DNA of 53,716 nucleotides, filler included, from Porpidia crustulata (lineage: Eukaryota): NCBI GenBank assembly GCA_964255105.1. It is 4 parts of 4 records of this genome, joined end to end, with 100 filler letters (N's around TTAATTAATTAA, not from the genome) between each part and the next. Parts side by side here need not be neighbours in the genome. Positions count along the whole stretch, not along the records: positions 26,964 to 40,327 come from CAXUWE010000447.1; 3 more parts are not named here. The stretch is one strand, 5' to 3'. Below are positions 4,494 to 53,716 of the stretch, one piece after another. The position numbers and the translations under genes were made by a program. The notes under the pieces were generated by a model. That model did no database searches and had not been told where the DNA came from. It saw only the letters and a program-made list of their open reading frames with translations. Every line of letters begins with the position of its first letter. Position 1 is the first letter of the stretch.

Positions 4494-4614
4494 TACTAGT
4501 ATCAATCCCCTCGGTCGAATACACCCCTCAATCGAACATTGCTCCTAGGGTTAGGGTTTTGTTTTCTCCTCAGCCCTAACCCTAGGTACGATGTTCGATT
4601 GAGGAGTGTGTTCG
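4494..4614. mobile_element. Hairpin (MITE-like) element with telomere-like TAGGGTTAGGG arms
   Basis: 41-bp inverted arms 4516-4556 and 4574-4614 with 5 mismatches. Left end TACTAGTATCAATCCCCTCGGTCG. Shares both the end motif and a 36-bp block (30/36 identical) with the element at 37813-37908. Confidence 0.65.
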
Positions 4615-13393: not shown

Positions 13394-13493
13394 NNNNNNN
13401 NNNNNNNNNNNNNNNNNNNNNNNNNNNNNNNNNNNNNTTAATTAATTAANNNNNNNNNNNNNNNNNNNNNNNNNNNNNNNNNNNNNNNNNNNN
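13394..13493. other. Scaffold gap spacer (N run / TTAATTAATTAA / N run)
   Basis: The 12-mer has stops in all six frames and is flanked by ~44 Ns on each side. It is identical at all three gaps. Confidence 0.95.
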
Positions 13494-21507: not shown

Positions 21508-22360
21508 CGGAAGCTCGCAGACTTTTGGGATCGGGACGGTGACAAGGACTCAATTGTTCGCTTTCGACGCGGGCCTCTGCAAGGCAACAGCATTGACCTT
21601 GGATTTCTGTAGAGACAGGCACCCCACCGACTGTTGTCAGACTTTGGGCATAAGGTTGGAGCGAACCAAGCAACAAAAGAAATCACGAATCTGAACTCTG
21701 AAGAAACTTTGTTGTCCTTCCGCATTTGATGGACACCCGGTAAACTATGTAGCTCAGCCCTACAAGGCCGCTTAGGCCGCCGTTGAGGCTGCTAGATACC
21801 TTAGGCTTGGCATTCTCGAAGGTTTCAGCGCCGAGTATCAGAGTTGTGCAAAGTGCTATGCAGCAGTATTGGGCGTGCCTAGGGAAACCTTGGTATAGCC
21901 ATTCTTACAAATTGAAATTCCAGTCGAAGGTATTCTGATCAGGTCGCCAATCTGGCCAAAATGTGTTTATCACCGATGGGGTTGAACGGAGCAGCTCTAG
22001 TGTATCTCGACCAACTATTTCCAGGTCTGAAACCCTTGATGGCACTGAGAGTGAGGTACTTGCAGTCTGGACCTTTCGTTGCCCAGCAACAAGCAAAGCG
22101 CCAGCGGTACTCGCAATTCGGACGATTAAACCTCATTCCCAAGCTAGCTTTCTGGATGTTGGTGATTTCTGTCTTTGATATTGTTGATCCCACCTTGTCT
22201 TGACCCATTGAGGGATTTATAGAGCAAACATATACCAGCCTACGTATTTCCCGAGATCCTTCATCAATCCAATCAGTGGTATCGTGCGCTCATGAGTACC
22301 TTCCTCCAACGCCTTTTCCAGATATGCGATACTGCCAAGCATGAGTCAACCGCATCGGTG

Positions 22361-26859: not shown

Positions 26860-26962
26860 GGGGNNNNNNNNNNNNNNNNNNNNNNNNNNNNNNNNNNNNN
26901 NNNNNNNTTAATTAATTAANNNNNNNNNNNNNNNNNNNNNNNNNNNNNNNNNNNNNNNNNNN
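26821..26962. other. Poly-G contig end plus scaffold gap spacer
   Basis: A ~43-nt G run followed by N/TTAATTAATTAA/N. Confidence 0.9.
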
Positions 26963-27687
26963 NCCCCCAAACTTCACGCCTCAAACCAATCCCAACCATT
27001 CTTCCAAAAAACCTTACAATTACTGACTCACACACAGCCTTCCGGAACCCGACACTACAACCGGTAAAAACTCAAAACCAAACCGCGATGGAAAATCGCA
27101 CAAAAACCCGACACATCACCAAAAATCTCCCACGTCCCGGAAGCCTCGATAGATCGGACACAAAACCCCGAAACAGAGCCACGAGCTACTTGAACGTTCG
27201 CGACACACGTGTACAACTGTACGAGCAATCGTCCGTGTTTCTTTTTTTTTTCTTTTTTTTTTCTTTCTTCTTCTCTCTACAAGAANNNNNNNNNNAATTT
27301 TCCTTTACCGGGAGCGGATTGAGTGGATGGATGAGACGATAGGCGAAGGATGGGGATTGATGGATTCGGGGTTTTTCATCGATGGCTAGAGTTCTACCTT
27401 TTGAAAAGATGGTGATGGATTTCATCCTGCCGGAGCGGTCGAAGAATGCAGCCGAAATGGTGGGATAAAGGATATCGGTGCGGCGGCTGTCATGTGGCTG
27501 TAAGACGTGGACGGATTTGAATTTTGTATCATCTACGACCTCAGAAGCATGATTCAACGCTTGGCTTGCAAGCCAGATGCCGCGAAACGGCCGCGAATCA
27601 AGTCGCTTTTCACGTTCCAGAACCGGGATCATCCAATCGTAACCAGTCATGAAATCGTAACGCATCGGCCCCCCCCACATCCCAGAT

Positions 27688-30600
27688 CTAGATATAAAAC
27701 ATCGTGTTCCTCAAATTCGGATGAACCAGCACATCCTCCGCCTTCGCCTCCCCTGACGCCCCCTCTCCCGCCACACTCTGGGCAGGCGTCGCCATATCAA
27801 ACAGCCCACTCAGGTAACACCGCGCTCTCTCGCATATGATATCTGCATAGTATGCCGGCGGGCAAATACTGACCGCCTTGGTCGCGCGCCCGAACAAGTA
27901 GCACATGCTGTGTGTCAGGTCCTCGAGCACATCCGCGGCGTTTTGATGCGGCGGAGCAACCTTGCGCTTGGAAAAAATCTCATCCAGCACGATGTAGTAG
28001 TGGGCCGGGCGCGCCGTGCCTTGAATGGCGGTGTGGGCTTGCATGAAGAAATCCCAATTACGGGGCTCGGTGACGCCACGGTCGACACAGGTGCCGTTTT
28101 TGGGATTGCCCGAGCGATCGGCGTCGGCCTCCTTTGTGGGATAAAAGCGCGTGTGATGGCGCTTGCCTACGACAATGATGGTGATTTTTGGAAGCCCCAT
28201 CTTTGTATCGGTGGCAGGATATACATCTTCACAGGCTTTGCGAATCTTGGGAAGCTCGGTGTCGGTGACGATGTTATATTGCCCTTCGGAGACACCATCC
28301 CGATAGATGAGGAGGTTTTCGGGGAGGGAAGCGTGTTTGCCTCGGGTTCTCCAGAGGCTGAGGCGCGAGGCGATCATGCTGTCGAGATCGGTAACCATTT
28401 CCTTCCGGGCCTCTTGGATGCGCAGGTCGGCAGGCCATTGGCCGAGCCAGCGGTCGACGCTGGCTACGACAGCAGCCACGCTGGGCGCGTTTGATGCGGA
28501 TCCTGGAGATGGGTGTGTCACGTCGATACCGATCACCATGGTTTTATCTTCATTGATGATGCCCAAATTTGTAGTGTGGACTTGTTGATTGATGCCGCCA
28601 AGCTTCAGGTTGAATTTGAGAGCGACATTGGCGTTATACTGGTCGCTTCCCTTCACAAATTTCGGACCTACGACGCATATTGTATGGGTACCGAGTTTAA
28701 CATCACCGATGAATTTGATGCGATTGTAAAGTTGCTTATCTTGCCATGGCAGAACGACAAGTAGGAGTCCGAAAGGGTTTTTTAGATTGGCTTCGAGTGT
28801 TGGGTCGTCAGGACCGTTAATTGCGACTTCCTTTCCCCTTAGCGGAGCGGCAACTGTCATACCCACATCTTGCAGTGCTTTGTGGAATTTGACCATAGCG
28901 GGCTGTAAACTGGCCAAATTGTATTCGTTCGAGCCGCCCATCGAAATAATTAGATACGACCACTGGGCTAAGTTCGCTGCAGAGTTGAGCTTGTAGTTCT
29001 CCATGTTCCAGCTCCCAAATCTGACACTAGCCTGTACCTCCTTCTTGTACCGGACGGATGGGATTGGTAGGACGCGCCCGGGGACTGTGATCAGATTTGG
29101 AGGAATAGAAACACCGAATCGACCCAGAGTGGCATTAGCTTGTGGCAGAAGACCCACCGTCCTGGGACCGTTCGTGGTAATGGAGCCAGCATTGTCCCAA
29201 GGCTTACGAACAGCAAATCGAATCATCTGCTGCGTCTGATTTGGACTGAGTTTCGAATTTGAGTTCTGTCCAGGCATAACAACACAGACCTCTGCCGGTA
29301 GGTAGCTCGGGTTTTCACGATTGCCAACGTTAACAACGGGTATGTTGGGGTTCGCTATCACCCTGTTATGGACTACCTGCAGTATAAGCGGATCATAAAG
29401 CGAAGAAATGAGTGAAATTTCAGAAGTACGTACCGGTTTTAAAGAAATCGTAAACGCTTATGTATCTACCCTGGGAAGCACTTGAACCTGGTTGAGTCGG
29501 TTTATCTTCAGATGGCCCCCCTTTCTTGCCTTTACCCTTCTTACCACTAGATTTACTTGATTGATCCGTCGCCGCACCACGCGCCGCAGCTGAGCTTCCA
29601 GGCGCTGGGGCAGAGTCACTCAGGAAGAACTCTACTTCTTTCACATTTGCACCATGCTTTTGTACCCGCGGTGGATGATCTAGACCATGGCCATCGTTCT
29701 TGGTAGCTAGTCCGAATATAGTTTTAACTTTCGGGACAACCTGGCCCGCTCTATTTATCTTCTCCTTCAAATGGGTTGTCCGGACCCGGACTCTTTTGAT
29801 GAAGGACTCCACCTTGAACAGGTTAAATTGTTGTTCCCGGCCGTACCTCTCAATCAATTGGTTCAAAGGAACTGGATCATAGAAGGCTCCGTGACTAACG
29901 TTGATGTTTACCAAAATCCGGCAGGCCGCGACTCGTATGCTTGAGAAAAATCCTCTGAGAGCAATGAGACCTGCTCCAAGATCACCTCTATCGGAGCCTT
30001 GACCCAAAGCAAAGGCTTTACTACTTCCAATGGTGGCAATCGCAGTAGACGACTTCGCGTAGTGACCTATCAGTATATTTAGAGCCTGAACGATCGGAAG
30101 CTTGTTTGAAGAAACTGCGTTCACGTTGGTAGAGGTCAAAAACTCCATGAGCTCGGCAACAGTGAGGGTACCCGTGTCGCTAACGTGTACCGTGTAGCTC
30201 GATGCATTTTCTCGCGGCTCATCTTCCCCTTCGGCTCGGTATGGAATCACAGTTTCCACCTCGCCACTACTGAGCTTCCGTCGGGAGATCAAGGTGGATT
30301 TGAAGTCGGTAACTATATCATCCCGCACTTTCACATATCCAGGGGCTTCCAACAGCAGTCTTATGATCTGATTTAGTTTTCTACCGGTCGCAGCTGGTGA
30401 CACGTTAATGTGATAGCGATAGAGCACGAGGTCAGGTGCCGGCAAGAGCTCGAAATAATTTGTCCACAGTACAACTTTCTGCCCTCTCGTCCCGTAACCT
30501 GGCCGGCGAGGAAAACCATCACTGAGTCCCAATTGGGCAATGTTTAGTGGGCCGCCGGTTGAGATATTCTTCTGGTACAAATCCTCTACCCTTGTAGCCT

Positions 30601-30790
30601 CGGCACTGGGAGTGGGAATGTGGTGATCTGGGGGTCTTGAATGACAGTTTAGTCACGGAGCTTCTGCCAAGATCCAACCGAGCACTGACGAATATATTTG
30701 CACAGTCCCTCCACCACGTCCTCCGCCTCGCCCCCCTCGAAAGCCTCCACGGTCGCCACGACCACGACCACCTCGTTCTCGTCCTGCCAT
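27688..30790 (-). CDS. Argonaute, QDE-2-like (N, PAZ, MID, PIWI) with an N-terminal RGG box
   Basis: Exons 30790-30690, 30635-29434 and 29372-27688. Starts MAGRERGGRGRGDRGG. Motifs RPGYGTRG, NYFEL, YLPAEVC, NVALKFNLKLGG, GIDVTHP, YRDGVSEGQ, KRHHTRFYP, GTARPAHY and PPAYYAD; ends in MFYI. Confidence 0.96.
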
Positions 30791-36207: not shown

Positions 36208-37130
36208 TGTACCAAGTGTGGACAGAGGAGAATCACCAATTTTTATTGCGATATGCTGGTATTAGTGGAGAACAATAACGTAGGCAGCAGGCTCCGGCCC
36301 AATGTATGGAAGGTTTGAGTGAATTTGAGAAAAATACCTGTGGTTTTCAACAATCAAGGCTAATCGACTAAGGCTAGCCAAACAGGGTCGGAAATTCCCT
36401 GTATTGTCAATAGGGATCGCAAATGTCGTGTGCTTTGGCCTGACATAACTGAAGTTTTAGAAATATCACTCTTTGGTTTTGCCTTTGTCTTGATGACTTT
36501 TGATTCCCTGTTTTCCAAGGTTTGAAGAAGAGAAAAAGTGTATTGAGGGTAAGGAAAATCGTGTGGAGCATTGCTGCCAAAAATGACACGACACTTTCCG
36601 AATTTTGCAAAGACTATTTGTTGTTCTTGTTTGATGTACCGCCCTGCTTTGCTACCATTCTGATGAAAAATGGTATCCAGAGGCACCACGTGGAGGTGCA
36701 GGGTCGGATTTTTGTCTCCGAGACGGTGGTGAGTGGTAGTGTGACCTCTACCCCTACACACCCGGGGAACAAATCTGTCCTCAAGCTGCTTCGCGTGGGT
36801 TTACCGCTAACCCCCCGGTTTGTTATAAGCCAGCGTACGTCCAGAGGACCGCCTTCGCCTTACACGGTTTTTGGCTTCACAGCTCTCGAGATTGATCCGG
36901 TGGTAGGATGCTCACCGGCACCAGAGACGGGGTCCATCTCCCGCTCCGATACCATTAAGCAGTAGGGAATGCTGTGACCGGCAACCCTACTATTGAGAAT
37001 GGGATAGGATAGGTATTTGGGATGGTGGCTGTCGTTTCTCCGAGAGCAGGATAATGAAGCTTCTAGCTTCCGCCTCGTTCAGCTTCAGCTTTGGCTCCTT
37101 GTCATCATCGTTGTCACCAACCAGGATGAT

Positions 37131-37328
37131 CTTCTCCACGGTTCGATATTCGATGTGGCTCTTATGATCCAAGAGCATTCTCATGGCAGTCTTGCCGTTC
37201 ACACTTCCAAGCAATGCGTAGAAACCTAATGACCTTCTCCACGGTTCGATATCCGATGTGGCTCTTGATTCACGAGCAATCTCACGGTGCTCTTGCCATT
37301 CACGCTTCCAAGTAATGCGTAGAAACCT
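37131..37328. repeat. Imperfect tandem duplication of ~97 bp inside a coding sequence
   Basis: 37131-37227 and 37234-37328 both read CTTCTCCACGGTTCGATAT.CGATGTGGCTCTT...CTTCCAAG.AATGCGTAGAAACCT. The 37234 copy is 2 nt shorter. Confidence 0.9.
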
Positions 37329-37812
37329 TCGTCCTGCCCAGTATACTCGATTCGGCCGCGTTCCGGTCCATCTCGTGTATGGCTGGAATGTTTGACGACC
37401 TCCCAGATCACTCTTTGGGTCGATGCATTGACTACGAAACATCAGCGAAGACCCGACACATTAGCACGATGGTGGCGAGCTACCTGATCCCGGCTATACC
37501 ACATGACTTCCAACAGCCAAAGTTTTTTGTCAGCCGCGGTTGTGTCCCAATCCCTAAAATTGGCGGCGGCAATAATACCGCCGTTCTGGCCATCAAAATA
37601 GTTCATGTAGGCGGGCTCGGCCTCCTTGCCTTTCTTCCCCTTTGAATAGATCTTCACAAATCGGAGGCTGCTCACACTGATTCCAGCGCTAGCAAGAGCA
37701 CGCTCGACACTTTCCCGCGCATTCAGCCGCACGACGTCCGAGTCGACGATATAAAATTCCTCAACTTTCGGGAGTGAAGGGGCTCGGTGCAATGAGAGAA
37801 AATCCAACTGCC

Positions 37813-37908
37813 TACTAGTATTTACCCCTCAGTCGGTCACCGTAAACGAAGAAAGATGCTGAGCCCTAACCCTGGGTAAAATGACCGATTGAGGGGTTGG
37901 TATACGTA
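37813..37908 (-). mobile_element. 92-bp TIR element between TA dinucleotides that doubles as a putative GT-AG intron (introner-like MITE)
   Basis: TA at 37813-14 and 37907-08. Inverted core ACCCCTCA[A/G]TCGGTCA near both ends and an internal CAGGGTTAGGGCT. The minus strand reads GTATAC...TCTTTCTTCGTTT...GACTGAG...TACTAG. Removing it restores the host reading frame. Confidence 0.7.
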
Positions 37909-38094
37909 GACAGCTTATGGCCACTCGTACAGGCCGTCAGATACTCATTTGAGGCCACAGGTGAATTCATCTATCTGTGTTTAATTAGAGAGGAAGATCA
38001 AAGATTGTTTTTGGTTTCGATGTAAATTCCCTTGAAAGGCTTTTCTCCTCCGCTCTTTCCTCAAACATCTCTATCGCCTTTTCTCCCGGTTCGA

Positions 38095-38750
38095 CTAAAC
38101 TAGAGTGATCCTTCCTCGACCTCCATCGAAGTCTTCGGAGTCACTCTTGCCGCTTTTCCTTTGTCCCTTGTCTCCTTCCCCCGTTTTGTTAACACCTTTG
38201 AACCACATTCGTGCCCCATAGTTGATGCACAACTCTTCTCCCAGTAAGAGTTCTCTCGCGGCAGTGTACATAATAGTTTCTTCTGCAAGGCAGATAATAT
38301 ACGTTACGCTGAAACGTGACGCAATCTTGACTGAGATAACGCAAAAAGAGCTTTTTGAATTGGTGGGAGCATGGGAGGGATCTAACGCTGGAGAAGGTGG
38401 AATACGCGAAAGTAATAGGAGTTCAATCAAGGCGGAAGGAGAAGTATGATCGAACAGAGAGCCATGTTCCAAAGCCAGAGCTCGAGTTTACTGAGTATAC
38501 TCCAAGGGTTCACACGAATTTTCGCTGGGTGGTGTTCATCGGAGAGGGCAGGTGTTAGCACTATCAAGAAGTCCAGATCTATAGAGATATATATATATAT
38601 ATAATATCGTACTAAATCGAAGAAAGAAGGCCAACAACATGAAAGATATTGGCAAATGCCAAGTCCAAGGAAATTTTTGCTGGTGGAATTGGATATAAAT
38701 AAGACAGTCCAAGGATTTCAGGGAGAAAGGGGTGGACTTCAAACACAAAT
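38095..38750 (-). pseudogene. Degenerate small SET-domain protein (Set7-like)
   Basis: TRALALEHGSLFDHT resembles ALGxGSxFNHS, and YTAARELLLGEELCINYG resembles the SET motif RDIxxGEELxxxY. The upstream part is fragmented, and the conserved NH reads DH. Confidence 0.55.
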
Positions 38751-40327: not shown

Positions 40328-40427
40328 NNNNNNNNNNNNNNNNNNNNNNNNNNNNNNNNNNNNNNNNNNNNTTAATTAATTAANNNNNNNNNNNNNNNNN
40401 NNNNNNNNNNNNNNNNNNNNNNNNNNN
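40328..40427. other. Scaffold gap spacer
   Basis: N/TTAATTAATTAA/N, as at the other two gaps. Confidence 0.95.
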
Positions 40428-50170: not shown

Positions 50171-53100
50171 ATGGTTGAAATAGCTGGGGTGGTAAGCGCT
50201 TATGACAACGTCAAATCTTGCATAATAATAGCAAAGGGTATCTATGATATCCTTAAGAAGGTCAAGGATGCTCCAGAAGAGCGACAGCAATATCTTGATG
50301 AAGTCATTGCTGTCATTCACTCATTGGAATTCATACCGCGTTTAGATGAGATACGGAACGGGAATTCCTGGTCTCATGGCCTCTTGGCTCTTGTGGAACC
50401 TGGCAAGCGCTTTGTTCCTGATAAAAATTCAAGTGAGGCTAGCGTACCAAAAGGTACATTGGAAGAATGGGGCTACACCATTGATGCCGGTTTGGCTAAG
50501 ATTGGCCTCGACCGCATTGTACCTGAAGCTAAGAAGCCGGAGCCAAAAGGGAGTTACTACTATGACACCGATTCCTATGTTGCCACTGGAATACTCAAAC
50601 GCTTGAAGGGACTCCTACAAGGCCTATCGGACATTATGAAGCCACAAAGGGACTGAAGGGAGGCGTTACTAAACTCTTATGGTACTGGACAGAACAGGGG
50701 GTCAAAGGGCAAATGGATGACATGGTAAGGTTAAGAAAACACATCGACACATTGCTGCCGCAGGACCAATATGACCTATCCGTGGCAACTCAAATGCTAG
50801 CCAAGAGCAATGATGAACGTATCAAAGATGTTCAGGAAACGTTGAAACACGAGGTGAGGGAAATGGAGAGGGAAATAATTATGGCATGGCTGTCGCCCAT
50901 TGAATCGTACAAGAGACAAGACGCAATTTGGAAGGATAATTTTCCTGCTGGTCAATGGCTTTTTGAATCTCCGGAATTCCGAGCGTGGACATTGGGCAGG
51001 CCGTGGACTTTGTGGTGCTACGGTGATCCTGGAGCAGGCAAAGTATGTCTCGCCTCCAAAGGATCGCGTAGCTCCGTATACTAAATAGTCTCAAGACAGT
51101 CCTTTGCTCAAACGTGGTAAGGTACCTCCAGCAAAACGAAACACAACGTAACGTGCTGGTCCTTTTCCTATATCTTGATTATAAGGAAAAGGAGAAACAG
51201 ACGCCTACCAACCTTGTGGGCAGCCTTGTCAAGCAGTTGATCCAACATCAAATGTTTCGATTCCGATCGAAAGAGCTCAAGGCAATGTATCGAGCATCAA
51301 AGGGTGAGGCCCAGCCAAACCAGAATGAGATGGTCCACGTCCTTCGAGAAGAATTCAAGTCGTATTCTAGGACTTATCTCATTGTTGATGGGTGGAACGA
51401 TGCCACAGATGAGGTGAGATTTACTCTGGAGTGTCTTTTCCAAATACTATACGGTGAGAACGTGAGTACAATGATCACGTCGGGATCTGCCGAATCCGTA
51501 TCTGCCACAAGTGATATTGGCTGCTCTGTTTGTCATGCTTCCAGACTGCGCATATATTACCACTGCAACGGTTGCGATCAATACGACCTTTGCCAAAGCT
51601 GCTTAGATAAAGATGAATCCTGTGGCAATATATCTCACGAGCTCGAAGAGCCCTACGACCAGGTTTGTGTGCTGGTCAAAGCAACCGATGACAAATTTCG
51701 GGAATACGTTAACTGGGGAATAGAGAAACAGACGAAACATGATGAGAGTAGACGCAGAGACAAGCGAGTTGGTGGCTTTTCGCTGAGTACTACACCGCTC
51801 GCCAGGAGAATCGAGCAAAAGCCGTCGTTGAAGCAGAATATTTCGAATGAGATCATGCGCAAAGCTAGGGGCATGTACCTTTTAGCAAGGCTTTATATCG
51901 ATTCCCTGAAGACCATGTTGAATGTAAACGAGATAGAGAATGCATTGCTCAACTTACCTGAAAATTTACATATGGTATATGCTGAGAAGATGGAAAGGAT
52001 CGTCAACCAAAGACAAAGAAGAAATGCTGACTGGGCTAGGGAGGTACTGTACTGGATTGTCTGCACTCAAAGACCCTTGAGCTTCATGGAGCTTCAGCAT
52101 GCCTTGGGAGTCAAGGCAAGAGACACAGCTTACGATCCATATCAAGAGATCACTGAAGCGGATGTTATCTCCACTACAGCTGGCTTAGTCACTGTTGACT
52201 TTGATCGGCGGGCTGTGAGAATCCACATCACATTTCATGACTATCTTCAGGAAAGTCGCGAACGATGGTTTCCTGGTGCAGACTTTGATATCGCCCAGAC
52301 GATATTGACGTATCTGAGTTTCGAAGGGTTGAATTTGCCCTGCAAACCAGACCAGATTAAGCGAGGTTGGACCAGCTGCCGCTACTATCTTACGGATCTC
52401 AGTATTGGGGTGAACACGCAGCTCGAGTATGCTCGGAGCCAGATATTTAAATCCCACTGCTTCAATTCGTGAGCAATCCTGCCAAGCTGGAGTCCTCCAT
52501 ACAAACTGCATTTTAACTGGACTCAAAAAATTACTCTGACATAGATGTGCGAAAGGGGGTGAATGGCCTTCACATGGCGGCCTTGCATGGTCTCGAGCCG
52601 ATCATTTCCGATCTGGTGATCAACAAAGGCATCCCGATCGATTCGGTTGATCCAACGTACGAGCAAACCGCCCTGATGTATGCCTGTAGAAGAGGACACT
52701 TGAGTATTGTGGTGAGGCTCCTCGATCTCGGCGCTTCCGTCAACATTCGCAGCGCTAGAGAGACTACTGCGTTCCTTGAGGCGTATCTTCAGGATAACGA
52801 TGATCGTGGTGAGATTGTCAGAATACTTCTCGAGAGGGAGGATTTCGATGTCAACACACCCTACATCAACGAGCTGAACCGAACAGCTCTGATGATTGCC
52901 GCAAGGTCTGGAGATGACGTAATCGTGGAACTGCTGCTCCGAAGGCCTGATATTGAGACCGACGGCCAAGACCAAGAAGGTTGCACAGCGCTGGCGCTTG
53001 CGGTTATGGACCGGCAAATTAACGTTGTGGAGCTCCTGCTCAACCATCCAATGGTTGATATTAACCTACCTAATAAAGTTGGCAGCTCTCCTCTGATCAT

Positions 53101-53716
53101 TGCAGCACGAAATGGTGATGCGGACAGTGTTGATCAGCTGTTGAGGAACGGTGCTGATGTCTCGATTCGAGACCACGAGGGAGGCGGAACTGCACTTCTC
53201 AGAGCAGTAGACGAGGGGTATATAGAGGTGATCCAGATCTTTCATGACCACAAAGTCGACTTCCAGTCTGTCGATGAAGATGGGCGCAGCCTGCTTCATG
53301 GTGCCAGTGTCAACGGACATGAGGAAGTTGTCGATCTATTTCTCCAAGCCGGCTTAAACAAAAATGCTCGAGGGAATCGTGGCGAAACACCACTACACGA
53401 TGCCTGCCGAGAAGGCTACTACGACGTAGTGAAGGTTTTAATAGACGCCGGAGCTGACCGAACGATCAAAGACAATCATGAAAGGTCGCCTGCCGATACT
53501 GCATGGCAGAATGGCCATATCAGGATCTGGCGATTACTTCAAGGCGCGGATAATGACAACGCCGGCTCAGATGAAGTTGAATTTCCACGCCCAGAAATGT
53601 TGCCAACATGGTCTCTCGCAAAGCTTGCCCTCACCGATCTCATCCGCCAGCGGATCATACAAACAGACCCCAACCTCTCCGACAGCGACCCCGACAGCGG
53701 AAATACCGCACTCCAC
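50171..53716 (+). pseudogene. NLR-like NACHT-ankyrin protein with an inserted ZZ-type zinc finger; disrupted and running off the right edge
   Basis: N-terminal helical domain; Walker A CYGDPGAGK|T (intron 51043-51095); degenerate Walker B YLIVDGWND; GMYLLARL; ankyrins (GLHMAA, TALMYAC, SPLIIAA, TPLHDAC). Frameshifts near 50650 and 52362; in-frame TAA at 52448 and 52514. Confidence 0.85.

Follow-up and report, generated by a model that had tools for sequence, protein, structure and literature searches.

What kind of sequence is the short hairpin that interrupts an open reading frame of Porpidia crustulata between two TA dinucleotides, and does it behave as an intron? The window, i.e., the whole stretch of DNA that was analysed, is 53,716 nucleotides long, and the hairpin occupies positions 37815-37906 in it. 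The original prediction saw here a member of a family of miniature inverted-repeat elements (MITEs) whose termini supply splice sites. Our analysis leads to a simpler answer: the 92-bp element is probably a decayed copy of a non-coding, hairpin-forming, inverted-repeat MITE family, and the GT..AG pairs associated with it are incidental.

The arrangement of the element is as claimed in the prediction. The hairpin (copy 1), 92 bp long and MITE-like, lies between a left TA (37813-37814) and a right TA (37907-37908), both of which flank it directly and are candidate target-site duplications. The inverted ends and the single telomere-like motif are likewise found where they had been reported: a left inverted-repeat arm, ACCCCTCAGTCGGTCA, at 37824-37839 on the plus strand, and a right arm, ACCCCTCAATCGGTCA, at 37882-37897 on the minus strand, both recovered as matches to the arm pattern, enclose a loop that carries one CCCTAACCCT, a motif of the TTAGGG type (37864-37873, plus strand). 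The two 16-nt arms are inverted, agree at 15 of 16 positions and are spaced by 42 nt; when they are extended to 32 nt, the match falls to 75%, and over the outermost 11 nt the two ends have little in common (TACTAGTATTT versus TACGTATACCA). The DNA hairpin of copy 1 has a predicted folding energy of -14.5 kcal/mol (z -3.0), equalled by 1 of 200 shuffles. With up to two mismatches allowed, the arm pattern is found four times in the window, against 0.06 matches expected, and this count was reached by none of 100 shuffles.

The second family copy in the window (copy 2, 4494-4614, plus strand) is the fuller member of the family. It consists of the TACTAGTAT end, two left arms in tandem (ATCCCCTCGGTCGAA, then ACCCCTCAATCGAACA), a complete and perfect telomere-repeat palindrome, TAGGGTTAGGG/CCCTAACCCTA, and a right arm. 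It is 82% identical to copy 1 over 39 nt, and folds as DNA into a hairpin of -37 kcal/mol (z -9.3) with arms of about 42 nt. Two strings tie the copies together: the 10-mer CCCTAACCCT has three exact occurrences on the two strands of the window, all of them within the two family copies, and the 9-mer TACTAGTAT, sought on both strands of the whole window, occurs at 37813 and 4494 only. Coding capacity is absent from both, with stops in six of six frames of copy 1 (92 bp) as well as of copy 2 (about 121 bp). Copy 2 is intergenic. The ORF that continues into a condensin Cnd3 gene has its first ATG about 115 nt downstream of this copy, which may have an effect on the promoter or 5' UTR of that gene. 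A possible solo arm, the 16-mer TGACCCATTGAGGGAT, is present at 22201-22216 on the minus strand and differs from the arm pattern at two positions. Neither a second arm nor a telomere-like motif is found close to it, and it may be left over from a further copy or be due to chance.

Members of the family are also present outside the window. When the contigs of the only sequencing run found to contain this DNA (X1, probably its source) were aligned to positions 37560-38160, five contigs besides the source contig gave matches to the element that are 39-61 nt long and 81-87% identical (5-10 mismatches); none of the five corresponds to copy 2, and the alignment of the second record begins exactly at 37813. 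The unaligned ends of these contigs contain further arms (ACCCCTCAATCGGTCA, TGACCGAATGAGGAGT, TGACCGAATGAAGGGT and CGACCGGCTGAGGGGT), in some cases two in tandem. Since the loop sequence of copy 1 is present in two of the five contigs, the asymmetric form with a single telomere motif has itself been copied. Two window copies and five contigs make at least seven family loci in the genome, which is a lower bound, as the contig alignment was filtered and reports only matches of 80% or more. The inference of a MITE family, made in the prediction, is thus borne out both by the second window copy and by the five other contigs. No contig from two further runs of the same study (X2 and X3) aligned to the element stretch. 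Judging by the X1 contigs, family copies are 13-19% diverged; they are old, with no near-identical burst. The family as a whole can be described as units of 16-17-nt arms with the consensus ACCCCTCAATCGGTCA, tandem in some copies and inverted around a telomere-like core.

Searches farther afield returned little. The two-arm pattern had no matches in metagenome stretches; a single 16-nt arm is found in at least 119 of them, and among the matches listed there is neither a second arm on the opposite strand nor an exact telomere-like motif. Three metagenome loci picked up in a loose screen as possible relatives (L012, L053 and L073) look like chance matches and were rejected. In the open-access literature, we found no fungal MITE described as having a telomere-repeat core, and the literal arm, end and core strings matched only one unrelated yeast primer in open-access papers.

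Generally, the ends of the element read TAC(T/G)..GTA. Five are readable, namely the left end of copy 1 (TACTAGTATTT), its right end in reversed orientation (TACGTATACCA), the left end of copy 2 (TACTAGTATCA), and, also reversed, the ends of two X1 copies (TACTTGTAATT and TATTCGTACTC). The five are related yet imperfect, and four of them abut or finish in TA; one X1 copy has a differing end. TA recurs here in 3-nt steps, and the string TACTAGTA, common to copies 1 and 2, is an 8-bp palindrome, so that more than one placement of the exact ends, and of the TA duplication, is possible. By our reading of the sequence, insertion boundaries of 88 or 91 bp would be likewise frame-keeping, and the right side of copy 2 shows no recognisable TA-bounded end beyond the palindrome. 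These observations would suit a different kind of hairpin repeat, either of the foldback type or from a MITE superfamily that does not use TA, in which the two TA dinucleotides would simply belong to the palindromic end TACTAGTA/TACGTA, without any duplication having taken place. Tandem arms, present in copy 2 and two X1 copies, are also reminiscent of foldback elements; more generally, repeated binding-site-like units within each inverted end are found both in foldback elements and in Tc1 elements of the IR/DR type, and the repeated arm units of the present family are comparable to those of either group. We nevertheless consider a repeat of this other kind unlikely: excision of 94 bp, i.e., of the element with either TA, gives a product that is colinear with the homologues and of equal length, this being the only excision that equals the length of all six of them, and TA is the predominant context of the readable ends. 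Duplication of TA is plausible, and it fits the homologue colinearity, judged at one copy. Pfam searches found no transposase family among the 49 ORFs of the window; since the window encodes no transposase, the assignment to the Tc1/mariner-pogo group is drawn from the TA dinucleotides.

The gene into which copy 1 inserted lies on the minus strand at 36993-37970, as delimited by tblastn with two homologous proteins (P0001 and P0002), and has about 262 codons. It is an orphan without a Pfam family, the only match of its product being to Thiolase_C_1, below threshold (E 0.22). The host ORF, MNSPVASNEYLTACTSGHKLST, begins at 37970, enters the element and halts at a TAG which, on the coding strand, is provided by the telomere-like motif. 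The element interrupts the ORF after codon 21, and the coding sequence continues downstream of it in another frame, as RQLDFLSLHRAPS. Both the interruption and the in-frame TAG of the original prediction are seen on the minus strand, and the 94-bp deletion does restore the frame in the predicted manner, yielding ...KLSRQLDFL....

Of 5.8 billion clustered proteins, only a handful are related to the host protein. P0001 and P0002 are, respectively, 68% and 66% identical to it; P0003-P0006 are members of the same clusters, and P0008 and P0009 are also related. This very small orphan family of about 262 residues has been seen solely in a small number of contigs from ENA and Logan, with identities of 66-68%. 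Six ORF calls (P0001, P0003, P0005, P0006, P0008 and P0009) begin with MD.P.ASNEYLAACTSGRELY(I/V)(R/Q)LDLLSL, which runs unbroken across the insertion point, and the ordinary intron that the prediction allowed for at this position in homologues is not found in any of the six. ORF calling in this protein collection is prokaryote-style (P0007, the entry that comes from the window itself, has 96 residues and takes an internal GTG as its start), and the DNA of the relatives should therefore have neither an intron nor the element at this site. With six uninterrupted relatives, the interruption in P. crustulata is an insertion and not an old intron, which supports the placement of the element in a previously uninterrupted ORF. 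A non-mobile origin, either as an ancestral intron of the ordinary kind or as an inverted repeat formed by chance, would be compatible with the length and the GT..AG ends, which are those a fungal intron may have; against it stand the uninterrupted homologous ORFs, the related copies at another window position and on the five contigs, and an arm match count that shuffled sequences did not attain, and we give such an origin almost no credence.

Apart from the element, the host gene has two disabling lesions and is a pseudogene, in agreement with a caveat of the original prediction. One lesion is an in-frame TGA (37442-37444, minus strand) that adjoins a deletion of three codons (9 nt) relative to the homologues. 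The other is a frameshifting tandem duplication at 37126-37328, with a period of 101 bp and two copies that are 86% alike; as its halves are 14% diverged, the duplication is old. It repeats the GFYALLGSVNGK segment, and many of the differences between its halves are transitions. The host gene being dead, there is no present selection for clean removal of the element.

How well, then, would the element serve as an intron? The hypothetical intron occupies 37812-37905 on the minus strand, with a donor GTATAC at 37905 and two acceptors TAG, of which one ends at 37815 (91 nt) and the other at 37812 (94 nt). On the coding strand, GT is placed 1 nt inside the element, and AG is made of the last two bases of the element. 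That both pairs keep the frame was correctly predicted, the products being ...KLSTRQLDFL... after removal of 91 nt and ...KLSTQLDFL... after removal of 94 nt. The introner reading takes this at face value: the MITE ends would supply or recruit splice sites, genic insertions would become spliceosomal introns, and copy 1 would be spliced at GTATAC...TAG. In favor of it are the presence of GT and AG at or near the element ends, the two frame-keeping splices, a length that a fungal intron may well have, and the lack of interruption in the homologues at this site. The consensus for A. nidulans, quoted from Kupfer et al. in PMC12403724, is GURWGY for the donor, RYURAY for the branch site and YAG for the acceptor; compared to it, the donor GUAUAC fits at five of six positions and the branch-like ACUGAG also at five of six, its last position being off, while UAG fits YAG. 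The position missed by the donor is the +5 G, as the prediction had cautioned, and this G is absent from five of the five visible family ends, all of which start with GTA...

Other observations stand against this reading. No fewer than 11 GT-AG pairs of 40-150 nt around the element restore the frame and leave it open to the downstream TGA, so that in-frame pairs are easily found at this place. The RNA of the 91-nt candidate has a predicted folding energy of -33.3 kcal/mol (z -4.55; 0 of 200 shuffles), and the near-terminal stem would bring the ends of the element together, which is also the case in some mobile fungal introns, according to PMC12403724; in this same fold, the branch-like site is buried inside a 16-bp stem, and the first four donor bases are paired. 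The pyrimidine run, which precedes the branch-like site, falls within the loop of the hairpin. For comparison, ORF junctions in genes of the window have a single frame-compatible GT-AG pair in 2 of the 11 cases examined (the other nine are ambiguous or have no candidate), and both donors, GTAGGA and GTGAGC, contain the +5 G, in introns of 48 and 53 nt. A search among the approximately 20 genes of the window, with up to four mismatches, found no other arm-bearing intron, the match count being at the level of shuffled sequences. One of the two clear window copies is genic, and that one is in a pseudogene; copy 2, as said, is intergenic. Furthermore, at the commoner family end, in which TA is followed by CTAGTAT, five surplus bases would remain after the matching splice and shift the frame, and the in-frame outcome would thus be owed to the variant end of this copy and not to the design of the family. 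Together with the divergence of the copies, which are far from near-identical, and with the condition of the host gene, these points make the introner reading very unlikely. It is not supported by our analysis: no positive evidence for it emerged, and several observations weaken it. The prediction therefore holds in its first part, the multi-copy inverted-repeat family, and is not supported in its second, the termini tuned as splice sites, in view of the pseudogene host, the 11 pairs, the weak donor, the paired branch site and the intergenic position of copy 2. We also considered an intron-borne snoRNA, and rejected it: a search of 37300-38400 against Rfam, with E values up to 10, gave four weak, chance-level matches, none of them on the element.

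Short TA-flanked inverted-repeat elements are ordinary in fungi, one of them being Guest of Neurospora, which is about 98 bp long and is associated with TA. We know of no autonomous partner of the element family described here. Like fungal MITEs of the Tc1/mariner-pogo superfamily, the element is about 100 bp long, non-coding, has inverted ends and TA on both sides, and belongs to a set of dispersed copies, here one genic and one just upstream of a gene; it differs from them in the sequence of the arms, which has no match in open-access print, and in having a palindromic TTAGGG-type core and sometimes tandem arms. An example of such MITEs is mimp of Fusarium (cf. PMC3599309).

Introners are intron-generating transposons (Gozashti et al. 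2022, PMC9860276; see also PMC12130899). Those with inverted ends and flanking duplications, i.e., DNA-transposon introners, are well documented in algae and protists (PMC9860276), and the existence of this type in other eukaryotes is a point in favor of the introner reading. The present element resembles them in being a short inverted-end repeat within a coding sequence, with a possible flanking duplication, GT and AG near the ends, and a removal that would preserve the frame; it differs in that its copies are 81-87% identical and not near-identical. The ascomycete introner families, according to PMC9860276, have neither inverted ends nor flanking duplications, so that the element, with its inverted arms and TA flanks, is unlike known fungal introners. 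Another group to compare is made of the introner-like elements of Dothideomycetes (van der Burgt et al. 2012, as cited in PMC9860276) and the sequence-similar stwintrons of Hypoxylaceae and Xylariaceae (PMC12403724). These are also fungal and intron-sized, and have a stable near-terminal stem joining the ends; unlike the element studied here, they are introns in many genes and are without flanking duplications, whereas the sole genic copy in our window is in a pseudogene. Stwintrons are in addition nested introns (PMC12403724), with a donor split between G and GU. The donor context at our locus, ACGTATAC, has no G directly before GT and no nested donor, and does not fit a [D1,2] stwintron.

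Our preferred account is the decayed MITE copy, of which the following history may be sketched. The element would most likely be of the TA-duplicating Tc1/mariner-pogo type, to judge from its TA flanks, and would have been moved in trans by a transposase encoded elsewhere. Copy 1 would have entered a small orphan gene, otherwise free of introns, at a TA within codons 21-22, and the in-frame GT..AG pairs would have arisen incidentally from ends that are palindromic and rich in GTA, and not as an evolved means of making introns. The element probably has no function in splicing. Two counterpoints deserve mention: the element may be removed from transcripts after all, and a phase in which it was spliced could have preceded the death of the host gene. 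A combined version, in which a TA-duplicating hairpin MITE with a palindromic telomere-repeat core has GTA...TAG ends that let genic insertions be spliced, is in our estimate highly improbable.

As it stands, the locus is a routine insertion of a small transposon into a dispensable gene. It has some value for annotation, since the telomere-like core could confuse searches for telomeres or for interstitial telomeric sequence. If copies elsewhere in the genome were spliced, fungal intron gain would be linked to cut-and-paste DNA transposons, a link not seen in ascomycetes by the survey of Gozashti et al. (PMC9860276); were the introner reading true, this would be the first introner of the DNA-transposon type in Pezizomycotina.

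The window consists of gene-dense nuclear DNA from a fungus of the filamentous ascomycete type, and Pfam searches identify genes for Argonaute, condensin Cnd3, a PALP enzyme, an ING/PHD protein and an NLR-like protein with NPHP3_N and ankyrin domains. A gene neighbouring the host is labeled 'cysteine synthase' in a protein atlas. The Argonaute gene is at 27691-30652. The NLR-like gene (50566-53713) encodes an NPHP3_N NTPase domain and a winged helix, followed by ankyrin repeats, and runs off the end of the window. Three pairs of 44-N runs, with 12 bases between the members of a pair, are found at 13394-13493, 26864-26963 and 40328-40427 (also 27286-27295), about 13.47 kb apart; they look like artefacts of masking or scaffolding, not biology.
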